64,000 nucleotides of DNA. Origin: Minisyncoccota bacterium. Its GTDB lineage: Bacteria > Patescibacteriota > Minisyncoccia > UBA6257 > 1-14-0-10-44-23. Under the pieces are notes generated by a model, which was not told where the DNA came from, searched no databases, and worked only from the letters and a program-made list of their open reading frames with translations. Shown in pieces: positions 15,640 to 56,334 of this stretch (positions are counted from its first letter, which is position 1; every line of letters starts with the position of its first letter). Both the position numbers and the translations under genes were made by a program. The stretch covers positions 102,765-166,764 of the forward strand of contig JAWKSL010000001.1 of assembly GCA_041389085.1 (NCBI GenBank), in the 5' to 3' direction.

Positions 15640-15723
15640 GAAATCGTGCTCTTTTAGCCTACCCTACACTCCTCCCAAAAATCAAACAGCCCTGCACCGA
15701 ACGTGGTGCAGGGCTGCGCTGGG

Positions 15724-16467
15724 CTAGCGGATGAGGCTGTTGTACTGAAGCACGTGGGCCACCATCGCTGAGAGCTGGCTTACGCCGTGTTCGTTGGGGT
15801 GAACGCCGTCGAGCCAGAGGGTTGAGCCCAAGTTGAAGCGCTTGCCGGCGAGCTTTTGACACCCGCCCCTGCTCGCAGCTATCGCGGAAGAGCTCATCGG
15901 GAAGTAGAAGACTCTTCCGGCGCGCTCCTTGCAGGTTTCTCTAACCTTGGCGTTGAAGCTATCTAGTTGGGCCTGCGTCGGGAACGTGACGCCGTAGAGC
16001 TTGAGCGCGGTGCTATCGGTCAAGTCAGGCACGTCGCCAAGGAGCACGGGGCAGTCGAAGTTTCGCGCAAACGACAAGCCTTGCTCGAAGCGCTCACCTC
16101 GCTCCTCGACTGGCCCGCGGTAGGCAAACCAGAAGAGAAAGTCGGTGGCAACGACCAGTGTAGGGTTGAGCGCCTTGGCAGAGCGGATCTGACTGTCGGC
16201 ACTTTCCACGAGCCTCTCGCTCATCTTGGCATCGGCGAAGTTGAAGACCTGGCAGTCTGGGCCCTGCAGGATCTTCTTCAGGTAGTGGTCGAGGGCTGGG
16301 GCCCACACGCCGCCTGCAGAAGAGCTTGCGCCGATGATGACGATGCGCTGCGTGGTACTGACCATGCAGGGCTCTACCGGCTCCTCCCTTCCTCCCGTAG
16401 ACAAGCAGCTCAGTAGGAGGGGCGCCATCAGAATGCAGAGGAGAAGTTTTCTAACCATGGGACGCAC
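15724..16467 (-). CDS. SGNH/GDSL hydrolase family lipoprotein
   Basis: lipobox LLLSCLS; block I IIGASSS; block V DGVHPN. Confidence 0.75.
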   Translation of the reverse strand: MRPMVRKLLLCILMAPLLLSCLSTGGREEPVEPCMVSTTQRIVIIGASSSAGGVWAPALDHYLKKILQGPDCQVFNFADAKMSERLVESADSQIRSAKALNPTLVVATDFLFWFAYRGPVEERGERFEQGLSFARNFDCPVLLGDVPDLTDSTALKLYGVTFPTQAQLDSFNAKVRETCKERAGRVFYFPMSSSAIAASRGGCQKLAGKRFNLGSTLWLDGVHPNEHGVSQLSAMVAHVLQYNSLIR

Positions 16468-16595
16468 CTCCGTTTTCTATCTCTTCACCATGAAGAGTTC
16501 TATATTTAGTTTACTCCTATCTAACAAATTCTCTAAATTTTACTTATCGGCTTTTATAAAATAGACTGACTCTACCATCGTTGAAAGGAGCAACC

Positions 16596-16844
16596 ATGCC
16601 TTGCGACCATAAGCCTAACTGCGATCAGGCCTTTTGCATGGAGTGCGGCAAAAAAAACCCCTCCTTCAATCGGGATGTGCACGGAGAATACGAGAAGTTT
16701 GTTGATATGCACTGCCTTCTCGGACACCCCTTCGCTGCGAAATTCGCCCTGGAAATGCAAAGGTGTGGCGAGGAGCCGCCGAACTTCTGCCCCGAATGTG
16801 GAGCAGCACTGACCGAGCAGTCACCGCAAGAGCCACTCAAATGA
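16596..16844 (+). CDS. small double zinc-ribbon protein, paralog 1
   Basis: AAAGGAG upstream; CMECGKKNP and CPECG motifs. Confidence 0.55.
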   Translation: MPCDHKPNCDQAFCMECGKKNPSFNRDVHGEYEKFVDMHCLLGHPFAAKFALEMQRCGEEPPNFCPECGAALTEQSPQEPLK

Positions 16845-16862
16845 GTGGCTCTGTTCTTTTTC
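16833..16862 (+). terminator. intrinsic terminator
   Basis: gagccactc-aaat-gagtggctc + t-run; stop codon in loop. Confidence 0.6.
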
Positions 16863-16919
16863 TTTACATATTTATTTCAATAGAATAGTATGGGCTCGTT
16901 AGTACTGGAGATACGACTA

Positions 16920-17156
16920 ATGCCCTGTTCCCACCCCCAACCCTCCAACGTAGCTTTCTGCACGGAGTGCGGCGAGAAAAACCCGTACTTCGACAGGAGG
17001 CTATTTCAGCAGATGCACCGAAACAACAAGAGCTACGAGGAAGCTCTTGGGGACTGCTTCGAAGGCCACTCTGCTACGCTTGAGGCGGCGCGCATCATCT
17101 TCGAAGGTGAAGATGTGCTGCGCTACTGCCCCGACTGCGGGACGGTGCTCACCTAG
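16920..17156 (+). CDS. small double zinc-ribbon protein, paralog 2
   Basis: tandem paralog (MPCSHPQ..FCTECGEKNP vs MPCDHKP..FCMECGKKNP); CPDCG. Confidence 0.55.
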   Translation: MPCSHPQPSNVAFCTECGEKNPYFDRRLFQQMHRNNKSYEEALGDCFEGHSATLEAARIIFEGEDVLRYCPDCGTVLT

Positions 17157-17164
17157 CAGGAAAC

Positions 17165-17197
17165 GCGAGAGCCACTCTGAGGAGTGGCTCTGTTTTT
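17165..17197 (+). terminator. intrinsic terminator (bidirectional)
   Basis: gagccactc-tgag-gagtggctc, same 9 bp stem as 16833 copy. Confidence 0.6.
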
Positions 17198-17646
17198 TAT
17201 TGACAAATATCTATTTTCATGTTTAAATATCTGTCGAACCTCAGAAGAAAGGACTCGCGGTTTGAGCAAGCTTGGCAGGCATTTGAAAACGTTTCTGGTA
17301 CCGGGTTGCACGGCGCTGTTATGCACTCTACCTGCACCTGCCCGCAGACTGGCTGGTACACTGCTGTGCAGGCGTCTACATTTCTTTGCTCTGGCTTGCA
17401 CTCTACTCCTGCTACTGGCGCAGGCTCTGGGTCTGCTTGTACTTGTGGACATTCTTCAAACTCACAGTTTGGGCCGGTGCAGCCAACTGCGCTACCGTCT
17501 GGGCATATCTTTGCCTCAAGAGTGCAGGCTGTGCCATCTGGCTCTTTATCTTCGTTTATTGGCGCTTCCATCTTTTCAGCAAACAAGTAGCTGTATGCTG
17601 CAAAAGCGAGCACAAGGGCTATAAGGGCGAGTAATATTTTTTTCAT
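17197..17646 (-). CDS. secreted Cys-rich protein with Kazal-like domain
   Basis: signal peptide; YQPVCG...C...ETFSNACQAC resembles Kazal-type inhibitor fold. Confidence 0.5.
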   Translation of the reverse strand: MKKILLALIALVLAFAAYSYLFAEKMEAPINEDKEPDGTACTLEAKICPDGSAVGCTGPNCEFEECPQVQADPEPAPVAGVECKPEQRNVDACTAVYQPVCGQVQVECITAPCNPVPETFSNACQACSNRESFLLRFDRYLNMKIDICQ

Positions 17647-17653
17647 ACTAAAA

Positions 17654-18193
17654 TTATACGTTATTTCTTAATTTCTTTCTGAGCTCTTTGTAGTTTGGGA
17701 TAGCTTTTTCTACGAGTGCCCAAAACTCTTTTGAATGGTTAAGTTCTTTAAGATGGCAAAGCTCGTGGACTACTATATAGTCTTGCAGCTCTTGAGGAAG
17801 CAACACTATGCGTGCGCTAAAGCTCATATTTCCTTTGTCTGAACAAGAACCCCAGCGAGTCTTTGGGTTTGTTACTGAAACTCTGTTGTACTGGTAGCCG
17901 TAGAGCTTGTTGAAGTGTGCGAGCCTTTCTTTTACCAGCTTTCTTGCAGCTTCTTTATTCTTTAAATACTGAGTTCGAGTAAAAGACTTTTCCGATACTG
18001 GCTTGAGTTTGCCGAGCTTTTTTACGTTTTTCTCTATCCAGCCTGCGTGAAGGCGCAAAAACTTTTCTATACTTCGCTGGCTTGCTCGTAGCGGCCCGCT
18101 TAATACAACTCTACCTCCTGGGTGTACCGTGAGGCGTAAATATTTTGAGCGCTTGGATTTGCGAATGGTAACTTCCTGCACTACTTCTTCCAA
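17654..18193 (-). CDS. YgjP-like metallopeptidase (DUF45/M48 family)
   Basis: WGSCS and HELCHL (HExxH) motifs. Confidence 0.8.
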   Translation of the reverse strand: MEEVVQEVTIRKSKRSKYLRLTVHPGGRVVLSGPLRASQRSIEKFLRLHAGWIEKNVKKLGKLKPVSEKSFTRTQYLKNKEAARKLVKERLAHFNKLYGYQYNRVSVTNPKTRWGSCSDKGNMSFSARIVLLPQELQDYIVVHELCHLKELNHSKEFWALVEKAIPNYKELRKKLRNNV

Positions 18194-18360
18194 TCTTTAA
18201 TAATAAGGGTTTTGCCTACCTGCTCTACTACAACCTGTTGACGCTCCTGCCAGCGCAGGTTGCGAATCATAGAGGCTGGCAGCGTAACCCCTATTGTTCG
18301 TTTCCCGCCAGTGCGGAAAAGCTTGCGAACGTTTTCATCTCCCAATTTTCTTCGAGCCAT
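18181..18360 (-). CDS. AbrB/MazE/SpoVT-family small DNA-binding protein (59 aa, below ORF-track cutoff)
   Basis: MARRKLGDENVRKLFRTGGKRTIGVTLPASMIRNLRW...: swapped-hairpin-like motif; overlaps YgjP gene start by 13 nt. Confidence 0.45.
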   Translation of the reverse strand: MARRKLGDENVRKLFRTGGKRTIGVTLPASMIRNLRWQERQQVVVEQVGKTLIIKDWKK

Positions 18361-18410
18361 ATTTTTCTTTGTTAATAATCTTTCTCTTAGTTTAACACTC
18401 TTCCCTCCTC

Positions 18411-18457
18411 TGCTCTAGAGCAAGCTCTATATTATGCTCTAGAGCATAATATAGAGC
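18411..18457. promoter_or_regulatory. operator-like palindromes: TGCTCTAGAGCA twice, second inside a 34 bp perfect palindrome
   Basis: 12-mer at 18411-18422 and 18435-18446; perfect palindrome gctctatattatgctctagagcataatatagagc 18424-18457. Confidence 0.5.
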
Positions 18458-18591
18458 AGACAGGGGAGTGGGTTTTTAAAAAAATTGCGCGAAGAGTTCG
18501 CAGTGTACGTGTTTGCTGCTTTTCACTTGCCATTTCTTTGAAATCATTGCATTATTCTCTCACCCCTAATTTCAGGGTGGAGGTCTTTCAT

Positions 18592-19518
18592 ATGGATAGG
18601 ACGGCTTTGTTTGATTTTGCCTTGGAGGAACTCATTACTGCCTTCGACCAGGGGTTGATGCTTCTGGTAGTTGGCGGCAGAAGCACAAACCTGTCCGCAG
18701 AAATGAGAGACGGTCAAAACATCGTGTGGCTTGGTAGCACCGACGCTGCGTCCATGGGTGCAAATAGCATCCCCGAGCGAGTCGGAGTGGTGCTTTTCCT
18801 TCGCTTCATTGATCATAAGCTTTTTGAGCGGTTGCGTGCCGACGCCGATCGCAAGAAGATAAGCTTCCTGGGGCCATTTGGCACCGGAGAGCTTCGCAAG
18901 CTCTACTCCCAGGCTCGCAAGGCCCTGGAGAGCGAGAGTAGCGAGTGCGAGGACGCACATGATTATGAGGCGACTCAGAGGAAGGACTACTCTGGGTTGG
19001 TAGCGGCCATTTTTGACCGCGTGAAGACTGAGGATCTCTCGGAAGAACGCCTCGAGGACACATCCTTCTTGAAGGCTCTGGCCGAGGAACTAAGTATCAG
19101 CTGGCCCTCTCTCTCGCTTAAGCGGACAAGGCGGGTGTTTAGAAGCTGCCTTATCACACTTGAGGTGATAAACCCGGTGCAAACAAGCGAAGAGCAGGTA
19201 GAGGAGGCAGAGGCGCAGACTCGCTCGGAAAGCGAAGAAGTCGCAAAACTCAAGAGAGAGGTTGCTCGTCTTCAGCAGAAGCTCTCAGATGCGACCGCGC
19301 TTGCCAACAAGAGGCATGGCGAGAACTCCAAGCTTATTGGTCAAAACAAGAGCCTGCGAAGGAGGATGCAGGCCCTGCGCACAGAGCTCGCCAAGGCAGA
19401 AGATGCCCAGGCGATAGCAATCGAGATGATGGATAGATTCCCTGTGCTGAGGCTTCTCCTCAGCGATCAGGGAAACGAGGCTGTGCCTCCAGCTGAAGCC
19501 AGTTCTCGTCCTTACTAG
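18592..19518 (+). CDS. hypothetical protein with C-terminal coiled coil (island E)
   Basis: GGTGGAGG upstream of ATG; heptad-rich C-term. Confidence 0.5.
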   Translation: MDRTALFDFALEELITAFDQGLMLLVVGGRSTNLSAEMRDGQNIVWLGSTDAASMGANSIPERVGVVLFLRFIDHKLFERLRADADRKKISFLGPFGTGELRKLYSQARKALESESSECEDAHDYEATQRKDYSGLVAAIFDRVKTEDLSEERLEDTSFLKALAEELSISWPSLSLKRTRRVFRSCLITLEVINPVQTSEEQVEEAEAQTRSESEEVAKLKREVARLQQKLSDATALANKRHGENSKLIGQNKSLRRRMQALRTELAKAEDAQAIAIEMMDRFPVLRLLLSDQGNEAVPPAEASSRPY

Positions 19519-19523
19519 CGAGA

Positions 19524-19563
19524 GCGCTGGTGGCAGCAATGCCACTGGCGCTCAATTTTTTAT
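19524..19563 (+). terminator. intrinsic terminator
   Basis: gcgctggtggcagcaatgccactggcgc + ttttttat. Confidence 0.6.
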
Positions 19564-19620
19564 AAAAATCAAACGGCGCGGGCTTCCTTGCGGATGCTCG
19601 CGCCGAATGGCGTTGTGGGG

Positions 19621-20319
19621 TTACCGGCCGGGTATGGCGGGCGGGCGAAAGCTCATGTCGCCAGCTGCCATACTCAGTGCAGCTTGGAAGCCCTTGAGGA
19701 AGGTGTCTACCTCCCCTTCGGTGCGCAAGGTCTCGGTCCAGGTTGCCTTCGGTGTCTCGACAGTGACGTGGTAGACGGTTACCTTGGGGTCTTGCGCCAC
19801 ATGGATTGCCAAAAGGGTGATCTTGCCCTGAGGGCCAGTGGCAGGAAGATCGTCGACTGTGTTGAAGGCGGCTTCTGTGCTGAAGTTCTCAGGGTAATCG
19901 ACACCCTCGATTGAGGCGGTCGGCATTCCCGTGCCCCACTCAGCAACGTAGGCGTCGACTTCCTCCTGAGTGAAGGTGGGTCTGCCGCCTACCATCCGGT
20001 AGACGACCTTCTCTTGTCTCATGGCCGCCAACAGCTCTTCTTCTTCCATTCCGGTCTTGCGCAAGACCTCGTCGAAGCTCAGACGACTTGGCTGCTCAAA
20101 GTAGTCAACGCCCTCGATTGAGGCGGTAGGCACACAGATCGTAGGCTTCCCCGCCAGGTAGGCGTCGATGTCGGACTGCAGGAACTTCATCTGCCCGCCC
20201 TCGCGCCACACACGAATCTTGCGCTCTTTGATCAGCGCCTCGAGGCCTTCCTCATCGGTGCTCAGCAGGCGCAGGGCCGCGTCGAAGCTCACAAACTCTG
20301 ACTTCTCTTGTCCACTCAC
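19621..20319 (-). CDS. protein with two tandem excisionase-like HTH domains (island E)
   Basis: internal ~65 aa repeat, both ending PTASIEGVDY; resembles MerR/Xis-type HTH_17. Confidence 0.45.
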   Translation of the reverse strand: MSGQEKSEFVSFDAALRLLSTDEEGLEALIKERKIRVWREGGQMKFLQSDIDAYLAGKPTICVPTASIEGVDYFEQPSRLSFDEVLRKTGMEEEELLAAMRQEKVVYRMVGGRPTFTQEEVDAYVAEWGTGMPTASIEGVDYPENFSTEAAFNTVDDLPATGPQGKITLLAIHVAQDPKVTVYHVTVETPKATWTETLRTEGEVDTFLKGFQAALSMAAGDMSFRPPAIPGR

Positions 20320-29561: not shown

Positions 29562-29590
29562 AAAACCCGCGAAAGCGGGTTTTTTATTTT
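29562..29590 (+). terminator. intrinsic terminator
   Basis: aaaacccgcgaaagcgggttttttatttt. Confidence 0.7.
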
Positions 29591-30852
29591 CTTCGTATAA
29601 ACTTTGTGCGCTGTCTTCGCCCGAAGTTTATTGAAAACCGGTGTGCCTCGTCGCGCACTTGCTGGAAGACTTTTTTAGAACCAACTAAAAGCTCTTTGCC
29701 TACTTTTTTTGTATTTAAAATAACCAGCTTGTCGTTTTTCGCACTACTTTGACTGTGCATACCTGCTTTTGATAGGCCGACTACTGGAGGACGCATATTG
29801 TTTATAGCTAAAATGTCGCGCACTGCTTTTACTTGCGCGAGCCCACCGTCTACAAACACTATATCTGGCATAGCCCACTCGGCGTGCTTTATTCTTCGCT
29901 CGACTACTTCCTTGAGCATGTCTGTGTCGCTCTGAGTTTTTTCTCCTCTTATCTTGAAAATTCTATACTCTGCTTTGTTTGGCTCGTTGTCTTCAAACAC
30001 AACCATTGCGCCTACTGGTTCCTTACCGGCTAAATGACTTATATCGTAGCCTTCGATTCTTAGCGAAGAAAGTTCGTTTGATTTTTGCAGGAGTTTTGAA
30101 GACTTTTGCAAAAGCGCTATGTCGCGCACGTGGTCGAGGGCGCGAATAGCTTCGTTGCTCTTTTCCTTTTTGAGTGCTGAAAGGAGGCGCTTCTTTTCCC
30201 CTTTGAAGAAAAAAATAAGGTTTGAAATGTTTTTCTTATACTCTTTGCTACTCACCTGCCCCGTGCAGACACCCGGGCAAAGGCCTATTTGAAAATGGAA
30301 ACATGGGCGCTTTGAATTTGGTGTACATGTTGAGTATGGAAAGATCGGGCGCAAAAGCTCGAGGGCTGTTTTTAGAATTCGATAGCTTTGATATGGGCCA
30401 AATACATATACTCCCGCGCGCGGGCGACTTGTCCCCTGCGACATATATTTTGCTAAATCTTTTCCGCGCACTACAAGCAGCTTTGGAAAGTCTTTCTTCG
30501 TATCGATAACGAGGTAGATAAAAGACTTGTCGTCTTTTTCTTTTACGTTGTACTTTGGCCAATACTTTTTAATCAAGTTTGCTTCAAGTACCACTGCTTC
30601 AAGCAAAGTTTTTGTTTGCTCCCAATCAAGACTCACTGCCGTTTCTACCATCTCTGCTATACGGCTATCTTTCGTATTGAAGTAGTTTTGTAGTCTATTT
30701 TTTAACGAGCCTGCGCGGCCGATATAAAGAATATCGTTATTCGTGCGCCCCCGCCCAAGGCGGGTCCGCCTCTGGCGGAAAAAGTACACCCCTGGCTTAT
30801 TTGGGGCTTTCTTTGCTTTATTTCTAAGCTTGTCGCGTTTAGATTTCGGCAT
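29584..30852 (-). CDS. uvrC: excinuclease ABC subunit C, compact form lacking C-terminal (HhH)2
   Basis: GIY-YIG (KPGVYFF..ILYIGRAGSLKNRL), Cys4, UVR motif, endonuclease domain IEGYDISH...RDEAHRF; start set at MPKSKRD (30852). Confidence 0.85.
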   Translation of the reverse strand: MPKSKRDKLRNKAKKAPNKPGVYFFRQRRTRLGRGRTNNDILYIGRAGSLKNRLQNYFNTKDSRIAEMVETAVSLDWEQTKTLLEAVVLEANLIKKYWPKYNVKEKDDKSFIYLVIDTKKDFPKLLVVRGKDLAKYMSQGTSRPRAGVYVFGPYQSYRILKTALELLRPIFPYSTCTPNSKRPCFHFQIGLCPGVCTGQVSSKEYKKNISNLIFFFKGEKKRLLSALKKEKSNEAIRALDHVRDIALLQKSSKLLQKSNELSSLRIEGYDISHLAGKEPVGAMVVFEDNEPNKAEYRIFKIRGEKTQSDTDMLKEVVERRIKHAEWAMPDIVFVDGGLAQVKAVRDILAINNMRPPVVGLSKAGMHSQSSAKNDKLVILNTKKVGKELLVGSKKVFQQVRDEAHRFSINFGRRQRTKFIRRK

Positions 30853-30910
30853 AGTTGCTTTGGTTAGTATAAGCTTGAGCCCTCGCAATAGTCTACTGCG
30901 AGGGCTCGTA

Positions 30911-31144
30911 CTAGAAGCGAAGGCCTCCTTCCTGCCACCACCCTTTCGGCCATCGTAGCCTCTGAAAGGGCGGGTTGAAACGCGGAGGCATGTACTGGTT
31001 GCGCGGGCGCTTGCGAAGGCGCTCTTCCTCTGCCTCCTCAAAGGCCTTGAGCTCTTCGGGCGTGGGCGGGCGAAACTCGATCTTGCCGCCCGCTGCCCGG
31101 TGAAGCCTTGCGAGAATGTTGTCTTCTGGCGCTTGCTCTACCAT
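30911..31144 (-). CDS. hypothetical protein (island H)
   Basis: ORF only. Confidence 0.3.
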   Translation of the reverse strand: MVEQAPEDNILARLHRAAGGKIEFRPPTPEELKAFEEAEEERLRKRPRNQYMPPRFNPPFQRLRWPKGWWQEGGLRF

Positions 31145-31226
31145 GAAGGTCTCCTTTCACTTTTATTTTACCCCAAACTGAAGCGGCCACCCTGCGTAAT
31201 GCTGAGTGGCCGCTGCGTTGGTTGGG

Positions 31227-31766
31227 CTAGGCTTCCTCTCGGAAGAACCTGCCCTGCCCTGCGTCCTCGATGATCTTCTCTTGGACGCAGGCCTTGTGGA
31301 GCTCCTTGAACTTGGTTCGGAACTCTTCTGGGTCGATAAGCGCTTCAACTTCGAGGTCTGTGGTGGGGATTTCGCCCTTCTCACACCTCTCTGCCCGATC
31401 CAGCGCCCGTGCGAGCTCTCGCAGACGCTTATGTGCACGTCGGCGCAGCTCATCTCTTCCCAGCTCGAGCCCTTCCTCATCCACGCTGAGCTCATCTAGG
31501 ATCCGCCTCAGGCTGCGCTCGCGGTTTTGCAGAGTCGACAGCACCCACACAGATACTGCGAAAAGTGCCACTCCGATGAAGACTAGAGGGCTTAGCTCTG
31601 GCATGGGCGCTGCGAGCTTGGCTTCCCTGGGGAGATCACGATACGCATCATGCTGTATCGCATAGTAGATCACTCCGCCAAAAGATCCTACCATCCCGAG
31701 AACTAGCCCGAGGATTGAGCAGTTGATGGCTACATTGAGAGCCCGGTACTTTTGAATGATCTTCAC
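31227..31766 (-). CDS. hypothetical membrane protein (island H)
   Basis: GTG start, GGAAAGG upstream; two TM helices. Confidence 0.45.
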   Translation of the reverse strand: MKIIQKYRALNVAINCSILGLVLGMVGSFGGVIYYAIQHDAYRDLPREAKLAAPMPELSPLVFIGVALFAVSVWVLSTLQNRERSLRRILDELSVDEEGLELGRDELRRRAHKRLRELARALDRAERCEKGEIPTTDLEVEALIDPEEFRTKFKELHKACVQEKIIEDAGQGRFFREEA

Positions 31767-31890
31767 TTGAAACCTTTCCGACCTTCGCGCAATGGAGGTT
31801 TCATCACCTCACTCCTGCAAGGATTCGCGCCCCTGCAACAGCACTTCATTGCCACGCATTGGCGGTCGTTTTGCCAATTTCGCTTCTATT

Positions 31891-31920
31891 ATTATACCAC
31901 TAAATAGCCCCTTTTGTCAA
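31891..31920 (-). promoter_or_regulatory. consensus sigma70 promoter TTGACA-18-TATAAT (minus strand)
   Basis: minus strand TTGACA (31915-31920) and TATAAT (31891-31896); overlaps uvrA terminator hairpin aatagcc/ggctatt. Confidence 0.45.
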
Positions 31921-31931
31921 GTGGCTATTTT

Positions 31932-34502
31932 TTAGAGATAGTCTTTGAGGAAGCGGCCGGTGTGGCTCTTTGGGTGCTTGGCTATTTGCTCTGGAGTGCC
32001 TTCGGCTACTATTTTCCCTCCTCCAGCTCCTCCTTCTGGGCCCATGTCTATGATCCAATCTGCGAGCTTGATAACGTGCATGTTGTGCTCGATGAGCACT
32101 ACGGTGTTCCCCTTCTCTACAAGCTTGTTGAGCACGGTCATTAGCATCTTTATATCTTCATAGTGAAGTCCTGTTGTTGGCTCGTCGAGAATGAAAAGAT
32201 TTTTCCTTGCGAGTGGGCGGGCGAGCTCCTTACTGAGCTTTATTCTTTGTGCTTCTCCTCCTGAGAGCGTTGTTGCGCTTTGGCCAAGCTTAATGTAGCC
32301 AAGACCTACGTCTTTAAGAACCTTCAACTTGTCTGCTATGTGGTAAATGTCTTGGAAAATTTCGTAGGCGTCTTCTACTGTCATGTTGAGCACATCAGCG
32401 ATACTCTTGCCTTTGTACTCTACTTCGAGGGTTTCTCTGTTGAAGCGCTGGCCCATACAAACTTCGCAGCTTACATACACGTCTGGAAGGAAGTGCATTT
32501 CGATAACCTTAACTCCGGCTCCTTCGCAGGCTTCGCAGCGTCCGCCTTTTACGTTGAAACTAAAGCGCCCACTTCCGTACCCTCTCTCCTTTGCTTCTGG
32601 GAGCATTGAAAAAAGATCGCGAATTGGGCTAAACACACCTGTGTAGGTTGCTGGGTTTGAGCGCGGGGTTTTACCGATTGGTTTTTGGTCAATTTCGATA
32701 ACTTTTTTTATAAATTCGGTACCGAGTACTTTTGATACGTTTTCGAGGTTGTTGTTAAATCCGCCAAGCTTCTTTTGTATGTTTTTATAGAAGATATCGT
32801 CTATCAGCGTACTCTTCCCGCTTCCTGAAACTCCGGTAATACATACAAGCCTACTGAGCGGCACGGTAACATCGAGATTTTTAATATTGTTTTTTGTAGC
32901 ACCAACAAGCTTTATGTTTGCCTTGTCTTTGTTTCTTCGAGTTTTTGGAACTTCTATTTCTTCTTTTCCGGTTAAGTAGTTTAGGGTTAAGCTTCTCGAT
33001 GCACTCGAAGCTGCGCTGCCTTTGCCACCTTTTTTCTCTTTCTGTTTCGAGCCTGTCGAAAAACTTGCCAAAAGCTCTTTTGTTGGCCCGTGTACTACAA
33101 CGTTTCCTCCGTGCACCCCTGGGCCAGGACCTATTTCTACAAAATGATCGCTTTCTTTTAGTACGCGCTCGTCGTGCTCTACGACAAGTACGGTGTTTCC
33201 AAGATTTTTTAGATCTTTAAGAATTTTAATGAGGCGCTCGTTGTCGCGCTCATGGAGCCCTATGGTTGGCTCATCGAGCACATAGAGCGTACCGCTGAGC
33301 TTTGAACCTATCTGGCTTGCAAGACGAATACGCTGAGCCTCTCCTCCTGAAAGAGTTCCGCTCTCGCGGTTGAGAGTAAGGTAGTCGAGCCCTACCTGAA
33401 GAAGGAAGTCGAGCCTATCTACTATTTCCTTTAGTGCGTTTACTGCTATCTTCTTTTCGTTTTCAGTAAGGTGCTTTGGAAGCTCGGCAAAAAATTCGTA
33501 GGCCTTGTCGATGGTAAGCGCGGTAGCCTCTGAAATGTTTTTGTCGAGAATTTTTATTGAGAGCGGCTCTATCTTTAGTCTGTTTCCTTTACATACTTCA
33601 CAGACTGATTCTTGAATAAACGGGTTTCGCCCAATACCATGGCACTCTTCACACGCTCCGTATGGACTGTTGAATGAAAAAAGGCGCGGAGTTATTTCTG
33701 GGAAAGAAAATCCTGTCTTTGGATCGGTAAAGCTTGCGGAAAGGACTATGCTGTCTTCCTCTACTGCAGCTCCTGGGTCTTCGCCAAATACGACGCTTAC
33801 TAGCCCCTGGCCTTCGTAAAGCGCTGTTTCTACCGCTTCAAACAGGCGCTGCTGATCGTTTGGCATAAGCTTGTCTACTACTATGTCTATGTCGTGCATG
33901 CCGTAGCGCTTAAGCTCTACCTTTTCGTGTAGGCTCTGCCACTTTCCATCGATGCGTGCTTCTGAAAACCCTTTTGCAAAATAGTTTTGTAAAAGCTGGA
34001 AGTACTCTCCTTTTCTTCCGCGAACTACGGGAGCTAAAATTGTAACCACCTTTGCCTTACGCTTTTTTGCTTGGGTAATGACGGCGTCTACCATTTCTTC
34101 CGGACTGAGCTTTTGAATTTTCTCCCCTGTTTCTGGATGGTAAGGAACTCCAATACGCGCGTAAAGTACGCGCATGTAGTCATAAATTTCCGTTAGCGTT
34201 GCAACGGTAGAGCGCGGGTTTGCGCTGTGAGCTTTTTGATCTATGGCTATGGCTGGTGAAAGCCCTGTTATTTCGTCTACATCTGGCTTTTCCATTTGCC
34301 CGAGAAACTGGCGCGCGTATGGAGAAAGACTTTCTACATAGCGGCGCTGACCCTCAGCAAAGATAGTATCGAATGCTAAAGAGCTCTTCCCGCTTCCAGA
34401 AAGACCAGAAAATACGATCATTTCATTTCTTGGCAACTCAAGATCGATATTTTTTAAGTTGTGTACGCGAGCTCCGCGAATCGTTATCTTTTTTGCATCC
34501 AT
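31932..34502 (-). CDS. uvrA: excinuclease ABC subunit A
   Basis: two ABC modules, GLSGSGKSSLAFDTIFAEGQRRY; start set at MDAKKITIRG (34502). Confidence 0.9.
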   Translation of the reverse strand: MDAKKITIRGARVHNLKNIDLELPRNEMIVFSGLSGSGKSSLAFDTIFAEGQRRYVESLSPYARQFLGQMEKPDVDEITGLSPAIAIDQKAHSANPRSTVATLTEIYDYMRVLYARIGVPYHPETGEKIQKLSPEEMVDAVITQAKKRKAKVVTILAPVVRGRKGEYFQLLQNYFAKGFSEARIDGKWQSLHEKVELKRYGMHDIDIVVDKLMPNDQQRLFEAVETALYEGQGLVSVVFGEDPGAAVEEDSIVLSASFTDPKTGFSFPEITPRLFSFNSPYGACEECHGIGRNPFIQESVCEVCKGNRLKIEPLSIKILDKNISEATALTIDKAYEFFAELPKHLTENEKKIAVNALKEIVDRLDFLLQVGLDYLTLNRESGTLSGGEAQRIRLASQIGSKLSGTLYVLDEPTIGLHERDNERLIKILKDLKNLGNTVLVVEHDERVLKESDHFVEIGPGPGVHGGNVVVHGPTKELLASFSTGSKQKEKKGGKGSAASSASRSLTLNYLTGKEEIEVPKTRRNKDKANIKLVGATKNNIKNLDVTVPLSRLVCITGVSGSGKSTLIDDIFYKNIQKKLGGFNNNLENVSKVLGTEFIKKVIEIDQKPIGKTPRSNPATYTGVFSPIRDLFSMLPEAKERGYGSGRFSFNVKGGRCEACEGAGVKVIEMHFLPDVYVSCEVCMGQRFNRETLEVEYKGKSIADVLNMTVEDAYEIFQDIYHIADKLKVLKDVGLGYIKLGQSATTLSGGEAQRIKLSKELARPLARKNLFILDEPTTGLHYEDIKMLMTVLNKLVEKGNTVVLIEHNMHVIKLADWIIDMGPEGGAGGGKIVAEGTPEQIAKHPKSHTGRFLKDYL

Positions 34503-34504
34503 AA

Positions 34505-35215
34505 TTATTCGGCTTTTTTTAACATAACCATTTCGGCATTTATTCTCTGCCCCACTCTTGGTGAGGTCCATGCTCCCTGCATAACATCTTCTACAACGCT
34601 CCAGCCCTTTGGTAGATTTAGCTCCTTTAAAGCTCCAACATGGCTTTCTAGTGGTATATCTCCCACAACTTGGCGTACTGTTTCTGAAAATTCTTTTGTA
34701 ATTTCTTCAAAGCTTAAGGTAGCTGTCTTTTTTGCTTTCGCTAAAATAGACAAGATAACTTTTTCTATATCTTCTTTTGACACATAGTATAGAGCACTTA
34801 GAGATACAATATGATCGTAGCTTCCCTCTTGCTCTACTGCCTCTTCTATCCTGCCAAGAATCACCTTTTCATATCCCGCCTTAATTGCCTGCTGTGCCAT
34901 GCCTGGCGAAATATCTACTCCAGTTAGCTCAAAATTTGCCCCTTCAATTTTTTGAAGTGCATTTCCTACGACGCCTGGACCGCACCCAAGATCGAGCACT
35001 GTTCCACTTTTTACATCGTGATTTTGAAAGAAACGCAGCATAGTTTCGGGAAGAGCATAGTTTATCTTTTCTCCGTATGCATCTGCTTCATAACTTTCCG
35101 CCTCGGCGTCATACATAGCCGCAAACTTTTCTATCGGTTTCCCTTCGAGGCCATCTATGGCCTCTATCTTTCCTTCTTCGACGAGGCGTTCAAATTCTGA
35201 TTTATATTGCTCCAT
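34505..35215 (-). CDS. class I SAM-dependent methyltransferase
   Basis: motif I VLDLGCGPG. Confidence 0.8.
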   Translation of the reverse strand: MEQYKSEFERLVEEGKIEAIDGLEGKPIEKFAAMYDAEAESYEADAYGEKINYALPETMLRFFQNHDVKSGTVLDLGCGPGVVGNALQKIEGANFELTGVDISPGMAQQAIKAGYEKVILGRIEEAVEQEGSYDHIVSLSALYYVSKEDIEKVILSILAKAKKTATLSFEEITKEFSETVRQVVGDIPLESHVGALKELNLPKGWSVVEDVMQGAWTSPRVGQRINAEMVMLKKAE

Positions 35216-35285
35216 AGTATTGCGCCCCCATTTAACTCTATGGGGGTGATATGTGTAAACCTAGTATATACAAACTGGCTTTTTT

Positions 35286-35324
35286 GAAAAGTTTCAACCC
35301 CGCGGCGCATGATGCGACGCGGGG
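35286..35324 (-). repeat. repeat module copy 1 (hairpin terminator gaaaagtttcaa-ccccgcg..cgcgggg)
   Basis: 38/39 identical to 35766-35804. Confidence 0.7.
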
Positions 35325-35338
35325 TCTACTGGTGAGAG

Positions 35339-35746
35339 CTATGCATTTGCATTCTCTGCAAGCCAGGCGATGGCTCTGAGCTCCCTCTCTTCTCCTGGCC
35401 GCTGCTCTATATCCGCACCGACCCTCTTGCCGGAGAATTTGATGGGCCCCTTATCCCTTACGACCATGAGCATCATGATCTTGCCATTCCTGTGCCACTC
35501 GACATCGATCTGCTCACCGCGAGCTACTTCGGCATAGGTTGGCAAGGGAAAGCCGGGATACCTCTTCGCTGCCTTTCTAAGGTAGCGAATGAGCCTTCTC
35601 TGCGCCCTTTTGACAGCCTTGAGCTTCAGCTCTAAGGGCTCGCCCTCTGAGTCGAGAAGGTACGCTTCTGGAATGAGGCGGCGCCTCAATCTCCGAATGA
35701 ATGCTTCTACTCTTTGCACGACTAACTCCTTTTTTTCTTTCTGCAT
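35339..35746 (-). CDS. hypothetical protein (island I)
   Basis: ORF; alternative GTG start with GGAG RBS. Confidence 0.4.
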   Translation of the reverse strand: MQKEKKELVVQRVEAFIRRLRRRLIPEAYLLDSEGEPLELKLKAVKRAQRRLIRYLRKAAKRYPGFPLPTYAEVARGEQIDVEWHRNGKIMMLMVVRDKGPIKFSGKRVGADIEQRPGEERELRAIAWLAENANA

Positions 35747-35765
35747 TCATTTTTATGTATTGAAT

Positions 35766-35804
35766 GAAAAGTTTCAACCCCGCGGCGCATGGTGCGACGC
35801 GGGG
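35766..35804 (-). repeat. repeat module copy 2
   Basis: see copy 1. Confidence 0.7.
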
Positions 35805-35815
35805 TTGCGTTGAAG

Positions 35816-36079
35816 CTAGGCATCTACGCCTGCTCTGCGAAGGAACCTGCCGGCGCAGTCGCGAACCTCTCGCGAAAACTTCCTGCGCCTCTCCATCTCT
35901 GGAGCGACTAGGACCACCATGGCCTGGCCGACCTGCTTGGCTGTGCCAGTAAGGTCGCCAAGAAGCTTCTGAATCGACTCCTCGGCTCCCTTGCCCTTCG
36001 GGTCTCTGAGGTCGCACCCGATCATGTTGAGGATGCACGCTTCGTTGAGCGTTGCTCGAAAGACTACTTCCTTGGGCAT
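35816..36079 (-). CDS. hypothetical protein (island I)
   Basis: ORF. Confidence 0.35.
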   Translation of the reverse strand: MPKEVVFRATLNEACILNMIGCDLRDPKGKGAEESIQKLLGDLTGTAKQVGQAMVVLVAPEMERRRKFSREVRDCAGRFLRRAGVDA

Positions 36080-36516
36080 GTTCGCCTCCTTTGGGTGCTG
36101 TTTTCCAGAAATACTTCTAGTTGCCTAGCAAGCATCTCTGGAGTGGTCGTGTGAGTTACTACTCTACTGTCTTCCGACGTGCAGACGCCAAGGATCTCCT
36201 TGGCAGCTCTCAGGCTCTCCGGCTTGGGGTACCCGGTACGGTCGATGTAGCCACTGTCAATTGGCTTCTTCACTTGCGCCTCCTTCTTGTAGCGCACACT
36301 AGCCCTATCCAAGATCTCCCTTGCACTTTTCAGCGTTTTTTCTGAGAACGCCTCCTTTTTCTTCCTGGCTACGAGTGCCTCCATGCACCGAGCGATATCG
36401 ACTGAGGGGCCGCTGAGTTTGCCGACAAAGCGATCTACGCTCTCTGTATCACCCCTTCCTAAGGCGACTGCGATGACCATGAGAAAATTGGCTTGATCGA
36501 TGGTGACCCGTGACAT
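36064..36516 (-). CDS. hypothetical protein (island I)
   Basis: ORF overlapping downstream gene by 16 nt. Confidence 0.4.
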   Translation of the reverse strand: MSRVTIDQANFLMVIAVALGRGDTESVDRFVGKLSGPSVDIARCMEALVARKKKEAFSEKTLKSAREILDRASVRYKKEAQVKKPIDSGYIDRTGYPKPESLRAAKEILGVCTSEDSRVVTHTTTPEMLARQLEVFLENSTQRRRTCPRK

Positions 36517-36561
36517 CTACACCTCCTTGGTCTACTCCTAGCTTAGAGCGAGTTAAAAGGC

Positions 36562-38397
36562 TTAGTCAAATTCTCGTATTTCTTTTTTGATTGTCTTTGG
36601 CGTGATGCCGTGTTTTTTGTTGTACTCAAGCTGTATTTTTCTGCGACGCTCACTTTCTTTTATCGCAGCGTTCATAGACTTGGTTTTACTATCGGCATAC
36701 AAAATAACACGGCCGTTTGCGTTTCGAGCAGCGCGGCCCATGGTTTGGATAAGGCTTGTTTCGTTTCTTAAAAATCCTTCTCTATCTGCATCGAGTATGG
36801 CAACTAAACTCACCTCTGGAAGGTCGAGCCCTTCTCTGAGAAGGTTTATGCCTACGAGAATGTCGAATTCCTGCTTTCGGAAATCTGAAAGTATCTTAGT
36901 GCGCTCAAAAGTATCGTTGTCGCCGTGCATGTAGCGCGACTTGAAGCCTTGCTCCTTCAGGAAAGTGTCGAGCTCCTCTGCCATCTTTTTTGTAAGAGTA
37001 AGAATAAGGGTGCGCTCGTTTTTCTTTGCAGTTTCTATAGCCTCCTGCATAACGTCGTCTACCTGGCTTCTATTCTTCTCTTTATCAAACACTGGGCGAA
37101 TTTCTATCGGTGGATCTACGAGCCCGGTTGGGCGAACGATTTGCTCCACTACGTTTTCTGAATGCTCTTTTTCATAGTCGCCTGGCGTTGCACTGGTATA
37201 TACAACTTGGCCTACGCGCTCTTCAAACTCTTTAAAGTTGAGCGGCCTGTTATCAAGAGCACTTGGAAGACGCCACCCGTGCTCCACGAGGGTTTCTTTT
37301 CGACTTCTGTCGCCGGCAAACATTCCTCGCACCTGCGGAACGCTAATGTGGCTTTCGTCGATGATGGTCAGAAAATCTGGCGTTCCATCTTCTTTGTGTG
37401 GGAAATAGCCGAGAAGTGTATCTGGAGCATCGCCTGGGAGCTTTCCGGTAAGGTGGCGACTGTAGTTTTCTATCCCGTGGCAAAAGCCGAGGGTTTGGAG
37501 CATCTCCATATCGTACTTCGTGCGACGCGCGAGTCTTTCACCTTCAAGCAGAAGCCCTTTCTTCTTTAGATACACGAGCCGCTCTTTAAGCTCCTCTTTT
37601 ATATCTTTAATAGCCCTCTCGCGGTCTGGCAGACTGGTAACAAAGTGCTTTGGTGGGAAGATAAGTATTTCAGTAAGGTCTTCTTTTATATTTCTGGTTA
37701 CTGCCTCTGTTATCGCTATTGAAAGAACCTCCTGGTCTTTGAGCTCTATACGGTATACGAGCTCCTCGCTGGCAAACTGTATTTCAAACACATCGCCTCT
37801 AAGGCGGAAGTTTCCTCTCTTGAGCGCTGTCTGGTTTCTCTCAAACCCGATCTTTACCAAGTTTTTCATCAAATCTTGCCTGGTGATTTTCTGCCCTACC
37901 TCGAGTTTTATAACTGAGTCGAAATAGTTTTCTGGCAAACCAAGGTTGTAGATACAGGAAACACTAGCTACGACGATAACGTCGCTTCTCGTTAAAAGTG
38001 AACTGGTAGCAAGGTGACGAAACTTGTCTATTTCTTCGTTTATCATCGCCTCTTTCTCAATGTAGGTGTCTGTCGTAGGTAAATATGCTTCCGGCTGGTA
38101 GTAGTCGTAGTATGAAACGAAGTAGCAAACACGGTTTTTTGGGAAGAAGCTTTTGTACTCCTGATAAAGCTGGGCTGCAAGTGTTTTGTTTGGCGCTATC
38201 ACCAGCGTTGGTTTTTGTATTTTCTGAATAACGTTTGCAACGGTAAAAGTTTTTCCGCTTCCGGTAACTCCGAGCAACGTTTGATGGCGCTGCCCTTTTT
38301 CTATACCTTCAATTAGCCCTTTGATAGCTTTGGGTTGATCTCCCGCCGGAGCGAAGTCTGAGCTTAGTTCGAATTTTATATTCTTTCTATTTGGCAT
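36562..38397 (-). CDS. uvrB: excinuclease ABC subunit B
   Basis: GVTGSGKTFT Walker A, helicase motifs; start set at MPNRKNIKF (38397). Confidence 0.9.
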   Translation of the reverse strand: MPNRKNIKFELSSDFAPAGDQPKAIKGLIEGIEKGQRHQTLLGVTGSGKTFTVANVIQKIQKPTLVIAPNKTLAAQLYQEYKSFFPKNRVCYFVSYYDYYQPEAYLPTTDTYIEKEAMINEEIDKFRHLATSSLLTRSDVIVVASVSCIYNLGLPENYFDSVIKLEVGQKITRQDLMKNLVKIGFERNQTALKRGNFRLRGDVFEIQFASEELVYRIELKDQEVLSIAITEAVTRNIKEDLTEILIFPPKHFVTSLPDRERAIKDIKEELKERLVYLKKKGLLLEGERLARRTKYDMEMLQTLGFCHGIENYSRHLTGKLPGDAPDTLLGYFPHKEDGTPDFLTIIDESHISVPQVRGMFAGDRSRKETLVEHGWRLPSALDNRPLNFKEFEERVGQVVYTSATPGDYEKEHSENVVEQIVRPTGLVDPPIEIRPVFDKEKNRSQVDDVMQEAIETAKKNERTLILTLTKKMAEELDTFLKEQGFKSRYMHGDNDTFERTKILSDFRKQEFDILVGINLLREGLDLPEVSLVAILDADREGFLRNETSLIQTMGRAARNANGRVILYADSKTKSMNAAIKESERRRKIQLEYNKKHGITPKTIKKEIREFD

Positions 38398-41020: not shown

Positions 41021-41066
41021 TATTTAAAAGTCGTGGGCGGGAACATTACTGCTCCCGCCCATGCGG

Positions 41067-41378
41067 TCAGCTGGCCCTGCGCAGCGGCGATACAATTCGC
41101 CGGCGCTTGTAGCCTGCTGACTGGAAGAAGTTCGGCGCCTTCCGGAAGATTCTCCCATCTGAGCTCTGATAGACCGTGAAGCGAAGCTCCTTGTCTGTCT
41201 TTGCCCTTTCAAGAAGAGTCCACAGAATGGACTTGGCGTTCTCAGGGATGTCGAGGACATGCACCTGCTTGCCGCCAATCTCGATAGGCCGAACTGCTGT
41301 GTCATGTGCGCCATCTGCCAGCGCACCTGCGAGGGCGTTTCGCGCCTTCTCGCTCTGCGTATATACGTACCATCGCAT
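41067..41378 (-). CDS. hypothetical protein (island M)
   Basis: ORF followed by hairpin gggcggga/tcccgccc at 41037-41062. Confidence 0.4.
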   Translation of the reverse strand: MRWYVYTQSEKARNALAGALADGAHDTAVRPIEIGGKQVHVLDIPENAKSILWTLLERAKTDKELRFTVYQSSDGRIFRKAPNFFQSAGYKRRRIVSPLRRAS

Positions 41379-41450
41379 CGCAATGCCTTTCCGCAGGCTA
41401 GGAATCTAACCCAGCACGAAACTATGACAGCTTTACTCAAAAAGTAAAGT

Positions 41451-52694: not shown

Positions 52695-53291
52695 CTATGA
52701 GTCTTTTATGTCTTCAATGAGCTCTGGGAACGTTTCTTGTGTAAAATGCCCCCTATCCTCGAACCATTGAAGTTTAATGTGTGGGATATTTTTCTTATAT
52801 TTCTCCGCGTCTTGATATGGTACGGCTTCGTCGTCTTTGCTTTGGTATAGGAAAATGCGTTCTGTCTGCTCACCAAGCCCTTCTATACTTTCTCCAAGCT
52901 CAAAATCTGCAAGTGAATCCTTGCAGTGCTCTGTGTCGTATGGCGGCGCAACAAGATGGACGGATTTTATCTTCTTTGGGAATTTGTTCTCAGCTAAGTA
53001 TTTTGCGAGAAAAATGCCACCCAAAGAGTGACCAATCAGAACAACCTCGTCATTCAGTAGAGGAAAAAGTTTTTCAAACCACATCTTCCACTCAGGGTAT
53101 CGAGCGTTCTTAGCGTTTGGCATCTTAGGATAAAGAACATCAAAATCTGGAAGTACTGATTGAAGCCTATCCTTCCAGTCCCTTGCCTTTATTTTCTCTA
53201 TAGTTAGCTTGCAAGACTCCAAATACCCTAAGTATTCTTCGTAGGTCTCGAAAGTTGTACCTCCATGGATTATTACGATCTGCTGCTTCAT
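52695..53291 (-). CDS. alpha/beta hydrolase (RBBP9/YdeN-like serine hydrolase)
   Basis: GHSLGG nucleophile elbow. Confidence 0.65.
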   Translation of the reverse strand: MKQQIVIIHGGTTFETYEEYLGYLESCKLTIEKIKARDWKDRLQSVLPDFDVLYPKMPNAKNARYPEWKMWFEKLFPLLNDEVVLIGHSLGGIFLAKYLAENKFPKKIKSVHLVAPPYDTEHCKDSLADFELGESIEGLGEQTERIFLYQSKDDEAVPYQDAEKYKKNIPHIKLQWFEDRGHFTQETFPELIEDIKDS

Positions 53292-53356: not shown

Positions 53357-53678
53357 TGCTCCGCGCAGGGATCGAACCTGCGACATCTTCGTTACGCTTT
53401 ACCTACTATTACTAGTAGTGCGGACTATATCATCGTCTTTCTATTTCTAGCGAAGACGCAAGGCGCTTCCCGTTGTTACGTAGCATGCTACGTAACAGCC
53501 GAGTACTCCCTTTTCGGGATAGTCTCTGAACCTTCCTACCCAAGGGCCAAGGCTTGGCTGCTGATTGCCCAGCCTAGACTGGGTTTCCAGCAATTCACCT
53601 TGTTTTTCAATCTGCATTTCTGCGAACCTGCGACATCTTCGTTAACAGCGAAGCGTTCTACCACTGAACTACCGCGGA
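53357..53678 (-). tRNA. tRNA-Asn(GUU) gene interrupted by group I intron
   Basis: minus strand: UCCGCGG-UA-GUUCAGUGGUAGAAC-G-CUUCG-CUGUUAA-CGAAG-AUGUC-GCAGG-UUCGAUC-CCUGC-GCGGAGC-A when exons joined (near-identical D/anticodon arms to E. coli tRNA-Asn); acceptor pairing imperfect in hand fold. Confidence 0.55.
53394..53644 (-). ncRNA. group I intron (approximate bounds)
   Basis: R element GGUUCAGAGACUA (53515-53532) and S element GAUGAUAUAGUCC (53421-53433) forming P7; P9-like hairpin CUACUAGUAAUAGUAG; terminal G; 22 nt direct repeat at 53372-53393 and 53623-53644. Confidence 0.65.
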
Positions 53679-55929: not shown

Positions 55930-55964
55930 ATGCAGAGGATAGCGCAGGGGCCTAAAAAGTGAAA

Positions 55965-55993
55965 GGCGCCGGCACACATGGTGTGACGGCGCC
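55965..55993 (-). repeat. palindromic repeat copy 1 (ggcgccggcacacatggtgtgacggcgcc)
   Basis: three near-identical copies with aaaagt(c/g)aaa flank. Confidence 0.75.
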
Positions 55994-56004
55994 CTCGCTG
56001 GCCC

Positions 56005-56334
56005 CTAGAGGGGCTCGTCTGACCTGCGCACGAAGACAAGCAGGTCGACCTCCTTGTCTGCTCCTTCGACCTCGATGACGTCGTAGAGTCGGTGCACCTC
56101 ATTGGTCTTCTGCGGAATCCTCTCGAAAGCATCGATGAATTTCTGATCGATCTTGCAGTCTTCGAAAATCCTCTCTTCGTCGTTCATCGCGACGAAGATC
56201 TGGACAGCATCGAGGAAGCTATCCCTCGTATCCTCGAACCGCCTCCCTGAGACGGCGTAGTTGAGGTTGAGAGCGACCGCGCTCCACAGCCCATCTTCAT
56301 CGGGACAAATCAGGACCCTTACTTCTCTTTGCAT
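56005..56334 (-). CDS. HicB-like/DUF1902-like small protein (island J)
   Basis: LICPDEDGLWSAVALNLNYAVSG...DSFLDAV pattern resembles HicB N-domain; paralog of 56759..57085. Confidence 0.4.
   Translation of the reverse strand: MQREVRVLICPDEDGLWSAVALNLNYAVSGRRFEDTRDSFLDAVQIFVAMNDEERIFEDCKIDQKFIDAFERIPQKTNEVHRLYDVIEVEGADKEVDLLVFVRRSDEPL

Follow-up and report, generated by a model that had tools for sequence, protein, structure and literature searches.

Promoter-early stem-loop (PeSL) cassettes have been described in T4-like phages (Arbiol et al. 2010, PMC2839356; Comeau et al. 2014, PMC4122927). In phage RB49, ORFan192 is flanked by two PeSLs, whereas a single chimeric PeSL is present instead in phage phi1, and according to the PeSL model recombination between two flanking cassettes excises or inserts the ORFan and leaves one chimeric cassette; its authors had as yet no evidence for such shuffling in cellular organisms (PMC2839356). 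The morons of lambdoid phages (Hendrix et al. 2000, as summarised in PMC2839356) are a further described case of genes inserted between others. Here, we analyzed a 64-kb stretch of a contig (the window) from a Minisyncoccota bacterium of the candidate phyla radiation (CPR), and in it a 1.3-kb GC-rich island of three small genes (island I) that is located between uvrB and a class I S-adenosylmethionine (SAM) methyltransferase gene and contains two near-identical copies of a hairpin module. Compared with a close relative, the window carries an additional orphan gene together with one module copy, which makes the island a candidate example of PeSL-like shuffling in a bacterial chromosome.

A repeated hairpin module at both ends of a 480-bp indel

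Island I comprises three open reading frames (ORFs) on the minus strand, encoding 150, 87 and 135 aa (p150, p87 and p135, respectively); these small overlapping or adjacent ORFs, listed in an initial annotation made from the sequence, were borne out by the ORF calls. Its description as a GC-rich, repeat-punctuated island inside the gene string uvrC-uvrA-methyltransferase-uvrB also held: the GC content of the island is 52-60% vs 39-47% in the neighboring genes, and these neighbors were confirmed by Pfam. A 39-mer occurs exactly twice in the 64-kb window (35286-35324 and 35766-35804; 38/39 identity), 3' of two of the genes as the annotation had it, and the number of such repeats expected by chance is zero (100 shuffles). 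The repeat can also be delimited as a 41-mer (35285-35325 and 35765-35805) with 40/41 identity, one loop base being different; the longest exact run common to both copies was found by inspection of the sequences to be 27 nt. Module copy 2 (35765-35805, minus strand) lies 8 nt past the stop codon of p87, at the upstream joint of the p135 cassette, and module copy 1 (35285-35325, minus strand) lies 13 nt past the stop codon of p135, at the downstream joint. Both stop codons are TAG, and a weak similarity of the two copies runs upstream to the stop-codon context, ATGCNTAGCT.

On the sense strand, copy 2 reads ACCCCGCG-U-CGCA-CCA-UGCG-C-CGCGGGG, followed by UUGAAACUUUUCA, and the arms of its hairpin span 35775-35807. 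In the predicted fold of 29-33 nt, a 7-bp GC stem is separated by a 1x1 mismatch from a 4-bp stem that carries the 3-nt loop, and the RNA folding energies are -23.8 kcal/mol for copy 1 (z = -4.6) and -26.1 kcal/mol for copy 2 (z = -5.3). The mismatch is G.A on the plus strand and U.C on the sense strand; the bulged G and bulged A of the initial description did not survive this analysis, the two opposed bases forming one internal 1x1 mismatch. Downstream of the stem, the module tail UUGAAACUUUUC contains an interrupted U-tract (6 U in 12).

The comparison that gives the module its significance is with L028, a 1308-bp Logan contig from run SRR23004066 with ~94% nucleotide identity to the window, in which the gene order is p87 homologue (P0005), one module, leader, uvrA. 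Using blastn, L028 5-330 aligned to window 36091-35765 (94.5% identity), L028 291-405 to window 35325-35211 (89.7%), and L028 410-1308 to window 34493-33595, within uvrA (94.2%). Because the single L028 module (positions 291-330) aligns to both window copies, the window has an extra 480 bp that is bounded by the module; this excess corresponds to p135 plus one module copy, and both breakpoints lie inside the module. The L028 module is a hybrid, its upstream flank and loop base being those of copy 2 and its downstream flank that of copy 1, and the module hairpin is identical in the window (copy 2) and L028. The methyltransferase gene is likewise missing from L028; in the window it occupies 717 bp that exactly separate the leader from the uvrA ATG, with TATGGA microhomology on either side. 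The "uvrA-methyltransferase block" of the initial annotation is therefore not conserved, the methyltransferase itself being an indel between the two sequences.

It is very unlikely that island I is an ordinary horizontally acquired islet whose terminators are alike by chance, the relative differing through an independent deletion or an artefact of assembly or binning. GC-rich hairpins after small genes are common in the window, a model built from a second island (island J, see below) does not single out the modules, and metagenome-assembled genomes (MAGs) and Logan contigs can be chimeric. However, a 41-nt repeat with one mismatch is unexpected by chance, the indel ends inside the 40-nt module on both sides, and independent assemblies agree with the window, L028 in having p87 followed by the module and L030 (run SRR32608987) in matching 925 bp of island J with 100% identity. 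Assembly collapse is an unlikely source of the L028 state, because exact identity between the window copies never exceeds 27 nt in a row and because the methyltransferase difference has no bordering repeat.

The modules might instead be leftovers of an old tandem duplication of a gene together with its terminator, after which the genes diverged, the terminator was maintained by selection and the relative lost one copy. The window offers a precedent (paralogues at 16.6-17.2 kb that are 37% identical and whose 3' hairpins have the same 10-bp stem), the residual similarity in island I reaches the last codons (ATGCNTAGCT), and two proteins of island J (109 and 108 aa) match weakly at their N-terminus (E = 0.006). 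Yet p135 shows no similarity to p87 (E = 0.62; the same holds for p135 and p150) and differs from it in length, and the 40/41 identity of the modules extends to their unpaired tail and to the mismatch bases, although divergence that erases protein similarity should also alter unconstrained positions. We consider such a duplication unlikely; since the copies are near-identical and the preceding genes wholly dissimilar, a recent copying or exchange of the module would explain them better than an old duplication.

Our preferred explanation, held with moderate confidence, is that the modules are both terminator-type hairpins and the homology tract for gain and loss of orphan cassettes, in a PeSL-like manner; the empty site in the relative and the near-identical modules together fit the PeSL model. 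The island would then be a lineage-specific accessory island of two small minus-strand expression cassettes in a CPR chromosome: cassette 1 (p150 and p87), probably read through from uvrB, would end at module copy 2, and cassette 2 (p135) at module copy 1. In the transcript, the module would form a stable GC hairpin of 11-13 bp followed by UUGAAACUUUUC, which most likely acts as an intrinsic terminator or attenuator and as a stem-loop stabilizing the 3' end, and its tail may provide a -35-like hexamer to the next unit, a promoter role that we regard as possible. The direct repeats, 480 bp apart, would act as a recombination joint by homologous exchange or slippage, either between the two copies or between one already in the chromosome and another brought in on a circle or fragment. 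Such an exchange would remove or add exactly p135 plus one module, leave the neighboring genes undisturbed and need no dedicated recombinase. Terminator activity, promoter activity and the recombination pathway are what we infer from these features.

Several observations weigh against this explanation. The role of the module as a joint rests on one indel at one module pair, and with two taxa a gain of the cassette would look the same as a loss. L028, assembled from one run, is short and starts 16 nt ahead of p87, so that p150 falls outside it, and the module copies were counted within the 64-kb window of the 312-kb contig. The terminator scan listed neither module, the tail UUGAAACUUUUC failing a simple U-tract criterion. 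The promoter-like match at copy 2 is weak (TTGAAA-17-AAAAAT, 35777-35749); this site and TTTTCA-16-TATACT, the site of the leader region at copy 1, have 9/12 matches each, their hexamers differ between the copies, and promoter-like sites in the region show no excess (11 vs 11.5 in shuffles).

The locus offers a testable unit in the form of a 480-bp cassette with two joints of 41 nt each and an empty site that exists naturally, which could be used to study how tiny accessory genes enter or leave reduced genomes without upsetting tightly packed housekeeping operons. The CPR lineage is streamlined, and the origin of its large fraction of orphan genes is unexplained.

Genes, proteins and neighbors of the island

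The first island gene, p150 (36064-36516, minus strand; ORF call), starts 45 nt past the uvrB stop codon with no terminator in between, and encodes a soluble protein with an isoelectric point (pI) of 9.7. The NCBI annotation of this gene (R3B52_00750) covers only the last 106 aa, using an internal Met as the start; because the Shine-Dalgarno sequence AAGGAGGTG is present 4-5 nt ahead of the ATG at 36516, the 150-aa start is favored. The second gene, p87 (35816-36079, minus strand), is preceded by GGAGG 5 nt ahead of its ATG and overlaps p150 by 16 nt, given which the two are probably translationally coupled. The third gene, p135 (35339-35746, minus strand), is the cargo of the 480-bp cassette and encodes a very basic protein (pI 10.3); its true start is probably the in-frame GTG at 35719 (126 aa), with AGGAG 7 nt ahead. 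The GC contents at the first, second and third codon positions (GC1/2/3) are 0.52/0.45/0.62 in p150, 0.64/0.43/0.72 in p87 and 0.58/0.39/0.63 in p135, so that a coding pattern of GC1 > GC2 < GC3 is present in all three ORFs, and GGAGG or AGGAG is located 5-8 nt ahead of the island gene starts. The encoded proteins are small and basic (pI 9.3-10.4) and without hydrophobic segments.

None of the three proteins had a match in Pfam, NCBIfam, PHROGs, PADLOC or the PDB sequences, and the statement of the initial annotation that they have no recognizable motifs agrees with these empty profile searches (Pfam, NCBIfam, PHROGs, PADLOC). In a word-indexed search of 5.8 billion proteins, each matched only itself, as MEZ4156492, MEZ4156493 and MEZ4156494 (R3B52_00740, 00745 and 00750) on a 312,629-bp contig of a Candidatus Paceibacterota bacterium MAG. 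The 90% cluster of p87 contains a second member, P0005 from Logan run SRR23004066, which is 92% identical; between the two, dN is 0.036 and dS 0.085 (omega = 0.42), the dS of p87 being low against the 0.30 of uvrA. Judged by their codon-position GC, their strong Shine-Dalgarno sites and the retention of p87 in the relative at this omega, the three ORFs look coding, i.e., real genes. A full HMMER search with p135 (1.84 billion representatives) returned one extra match (45 aa, 33% identity), summed over five repeats of a 639-aa repeat protein, which we judged spurious and repeat-inflated. An exact-match query for contigs encoding the three proteins returned no record, single-sequence AlphaFold models were unusable (predicted local distance difference test, pLDDT, 49.6 for p150 and 39.7 for p135), and no paralogy was found among the island proteins of the window except for the pair at 16.6-17.2 kb. 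By these searches, p150, p87 and p135 are database orphans, save for the one p87 variant in the close relative.

Searches at the nucleotide level and in mobile elements gave a similar result. Using blastn, the island had no match in phage and plasmid collections, and scanning IMG/VR for the repeats of islands I and J gave none either; the context of island I is bacterial, and neither its sequence nor its repeat was matched in the phage, plasmid or IMG/VR collections. An IMG/VR scan with p150, p135, the 181-aa protein of island J and a 232-aa HTH_17 protein of the window recovered only a trivial 16-residue zinc-ribbon match. The hairpin pattern was searched in 185,579 species-representative genomes (this genome not being among them) and no copy with the flank was found; the 24 hairpin matches in these genomes came from unrelated taxa and lacked the flank, each was a lone palindrome, in most cases a perfect one, and they were dismissed as chance. 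The search for the 39-mer proposed earlier thus revealed no dispersed copies among species representatives or in IMG/VR, although one orthologous copy exists in the close relative. A metagenome scan with the methyltransferase for syntenic relatives recovered only methyltransferases of 25-29% identity, without uvr neighbors.

The genes around the island are of the housekeeping type. Directly upstream is uvrB (36562-38397, minus strand; Pfam), the start of which matches the NCBI protein. Downstream of module copy 1 and ahead of the methyltransferase is a leader region (35216-35284, minus strand) with the promoter-like TTTTCA-16-TATACT (35290-35263) and a small hairpin CCCCCAT...ATGGGGG (35225-35246). 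The class I SAM methyltransferase gene (34505-35215, minus strand; Pfam and NCBI name) has a host-like GC content of 0.42, and its stop codon lies 2 nt before the start of uvrA (31932-34502, minus strand; Pfam), the true start of which is 34502 (MDAKKITIRG). The string ends with uvrC (29584-30852, minus strand; Pfam), which has its true start at the ATG at 30852 and not at the TTG of the long ORF at 31041. The chromosomal context of the window includes uvrABC, gatB, rplK, nusG, uppS and bacA.

Between uvrC and uvrA lies another island, island H (30853-31931, minus strand), in which a gene of 179 aa (31227-31766) is accompanied by a hairpin and by an ORF of 77 aa (30911-31144) that is preceded by AGGAG. 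The 77-aa sequence is absent from the protein collection and is apparently unannotated. A further hairpin is present at 30877-30907, and the start of this island is a perfect 12/12 promoter (31920-31891).

Two gene populations in the window

The GC content of the window is bimodal, with core genes at 0.39-0.49 and ~24-27 small genes at 0.53-0.62 (GC3 up to 0.86); the latter are spread over at least 12 islets, are mostly orphans, and nearly all of them lack a Pfam match. Shine-Dalgarno 5-mers were found in 12 of 24 GC-rich genes vs 3 of 54 core genes (Fisher p = 1.6e-5), whereas a -10-like box 4-12 nt ahead of the start is present in 11 of the 54 core genes vs none of the 24 GC-rich genes; the core genes with such a box near the start look leaderless. 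The hairpins 3' of the GC-rich genes have 12-15 bp with one mismatch or G.U pair and interrupted U-tracts, and the core genes have terminators with a short stem flanked by an A-tract and a T-tract. Where island hairpins depart from Watson-Crick pairing, several do so by a G.U pair that exists only on the sense strand. The contrast with the host genes in GC content (0.53-0.59 vs 0.39-0.47), Shine-Dalgarno sites and terminators supports the conclusion that the island is compositionally foreign, and it suggests two differently "formatted" gene populations in one genome. In Patescibacteria, horizontal transfer and genomic islands of up to 13% of genome length have been reported (PMC12455944).

Some of the islets are old and under selection, because a more distant relative, L029 (SRR23004074, ~84% identity; 1252-1700), retains a GC-rich 103-aa gene (41067-41378) with an omega of 0.18, together with the hairpin at 41034-41061 (minus strand). 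The dS of this gene is 0.38, about one third of that of the adjacent bacA (1.05), a low-dS pattern also seen for p87 relative to uvrA, and the 72 non-coding nt upstream of it are 96% identical in L029 (window 41021-41450). Compared with L029, the stem of the hairpin at 41034-41061 is unchanged and only the loop differs, in surroundings with a dS of 0.4-1.0. The island hairpins are constrained, to judge from stems that are kept across relatives while loops change.

Other parts of the window contain further islets and insertions. A larger GC-rich stretch (12241-20319) consists mostly of orphans and also encodes a trypsin-like peptidase (13041-13835) and an HTH_17 protein with an excisionase-type helix-turn-helix (19621-20319); it may be an integrated element, though no integrase was recognized there. 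The stretch includes tandem paralogues of 87 and 88 aa (16581-16844 and 16890-17156, plus strand; 37% identity, E = 5.5e-11), and the hairpins after the two have the same 10-bp stem, AGAGCCACTC/GAGTGGCTCT, but different loops; a repeat (D1) of 111 nt with 70% identity was found at 16581-17216. Elsewhere, a tRNA-Asn(GTT) gene (53358-53678, minus strand) is split by a group I intron (RF00028, 81.6 bits, 53402-53654); ARAGORN found no tRNA in the window, and a relative, L033 (1959-2033), has an intact, intron-less tRNA-Asn. L033 is also without the adjacent 689 bp that carry a gene for a 198-aa alpha/beta-hydrolase (52695-53291).

Island J and the comparison with known systems

Island J (55955-57840, minus strand) has four small genes; downstream of three of them lies a 41-nt module, whose three copies are 93-100% identical to each other. 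The initial annotation ascribed the same architecture to the hairpins of islands I and J. The gross layout is indeed common to both (a 7-bp outer stem, one mismatch, an inner stem of 4-5 bp and a 3-nt loop), as is a T-rich tail containing ACTTTT, but the two bulges and a shared stem sequence were not found. Scored with a covariance model of the three island J modules, those of island I reached 17.9 and 12.3 bits, and unrelated plus-strand terminator hairpins at 25178, 10429 and 24935 reached 19.7, 19.6 and 16.4 bits. Because such generic terminators score as high, the likeness to island J lies within the range of GC-rich terminators in the window, and the suggestion of one family or a common origin is not supported.

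In the modules of island J, TTGACT or TTCACT is followed after 16-18 nt by TAGCCT, TAGTCT or TATCCT, and in copy 2 (56399-56427) both mismatch positions have changed to give G.U, the copy being otherwise unchanged save for one tail base that it has in common with copy 3. The island begins with a near-consensus promoter, TTGACA-17-GATAAT with TG (57865-57837). A relative (L031, SRR23004066; 5999-6124) has a different Shine-Dalgarno-led gene (MSKRAKIEIG...) after the rplK terminator, at the position of island J (window 57837-57930); because of this different gene, the site after rplK is regarded as a hotspot.

Three unrelated hairpin sequences (35297-35325 and 35777-35805 in island I, and 55965-55993, 56723-56751 and 57141-57170, all with the minus strand as the sense strand) share a U.C mismatch that has its U on the 5' arm, which may reflect a selected asymmetry or a coincidence. 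It could be read as a sign that the hairpins are sites of dedicated site-specific or single-strand recombination, either integron/attC-like or of the HUH type (REP/RAYT, IS200/IS605), the islands being arrays of captured cassettes, which we regard as quite unlikely. The layout of ORFs and sites, all in one orientation, is cassette-like, the empty site in L028 holds one hybrid site, the hairpins are asymmetric (the U.C mismatch at 35297, 55965/56723 and 57141), and GTTGAAA after the stem matches 6/7 of the attC core GTTRRRY. However, a regex scan of the whole window on both strands found no complementary RYYYAAC...GTTRRRY pair spaced 54-148 nt, the site has 29-33 nt with a single 1x1 mismatch and no organization into R and L boxes, a Pfam scan of ~45 window ORFs detected no domain of a tyrosine or serine recombinase, an HUH enzyme or a transposase, and the mismatch is not strictly conserved, G.U taking its place in island J copy 2. 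An empty site of the IS200/IS605 type should, moreover, be free of the hairpin, and L028 retains it complete. A more specific version, in which the asymmetric hairpins are the sites of an undescribed CPR cassette-capture system that functions like an integron with far shorter sites, is highly doubtful; if it were true, the system would feed GC-rich, Shine-Dalgarno-led orphan mini-genes between Shine-Dalgarno-poor core genes.

Against the known systems, the module compares as follows. Island I resembles integron cassettes and clusters of attC sites lacking integron-integrases (CALINs) in its promoter-poor small ORFs of one orientation, in the imperfect palindrome after each, and in the hybrid site left by cassette loss. 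In contrast, attC sites of ~55-141 nt have complementary R''/R' cores, of which island I has none, as well as R''-L''/L'-R' boxes, extrahelical bases and a central spacer instead of the single helix of 7 + 4 bp. A length of 29-33 nt is about half that of the shortest attC. The module ends ACGCAAC/AGTAGAC and GTTGAAA each miss the attC consensus, no intI was seen in the window (the Pfam scan of ~45 ORFs yielding no recombinase domain), and the identification of the module as attC was rejected, no complementary core pair being present in the window.

With repetitive extragenic palindromic (REP) sequences and bacterial interspersed mosaic elements (BIMEs), the module has in common that it is an imperfect GC-rich palindrome of 30-40 nt at gene 3' ends, for which mRNA stabilization, attenuation and rearrangements are possible; unlike these elements, which are dispersed in tens to hundreds of copies and accompanied by RAYT genes (REP-associated tyrosine transposases), it has only two copies in 64 kb, in one island. 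A GTAG adjoins copy 1 only, copy 2 and L028 having GCA or CCA there, and no Y1/HUH domain was found in the scanned window ORFs. An element of the IS200/IS605 type or a palindrome-associated transposable element (PATE) was rejected on account of the complete hairpin in the L028 empty site.

As a stable GC stem-loop a few nt after the stop codon, on the sense strand, the module resembles an intrinsic terminator, and U-tract-poor "I-shaped" intrinsic terminators have been reported in high-GC bacteria. Its U-tract is interrupted, however, and near-identical copies and a role as indel boundary are atypical of ordinary terminators.

Like a moron, p135 is a single additional gene of deviant base composition that has a putative terminator and possibly a promoter of its own, and it is located between genes that are adjacent in the relative. 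Morons are defined in phage and prophage genomes and are not thought to move via regulatory sequences, whereas in island I the breakpoints are marked by a flanking sequence that is repeated.

The closest likeness is that to PeSL cassettes. Both are short conserved intergenic modules that extend from the upstream stop codon and flank small ORFans in variable regions, with a GC stem-loop (a terminator in PeSLs and a putative one here) beside promoter-like hexamers, which are weak matches in island I; in both, the ORFan lies between two modules in one relative, and the other relative (here L028) has one chimeric module; and for both, no dedicated recombinase is known. The differences are that the island is located in a CPR chromosome between housekeeping genes and not in a phage hyperplastic region, that there is no sequence similarity to PeSLs, that 2-3 copies are present per island vs ~50 per genome in phages, and that mini-circles were not observed here and the promoter component of the module is only putative. 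By this comparison, the module is an analogue and not a member of the PeSL cassettes, and the case might best be described as PeSL- or moron-like cassette turnover, here in a CPR chromosome.

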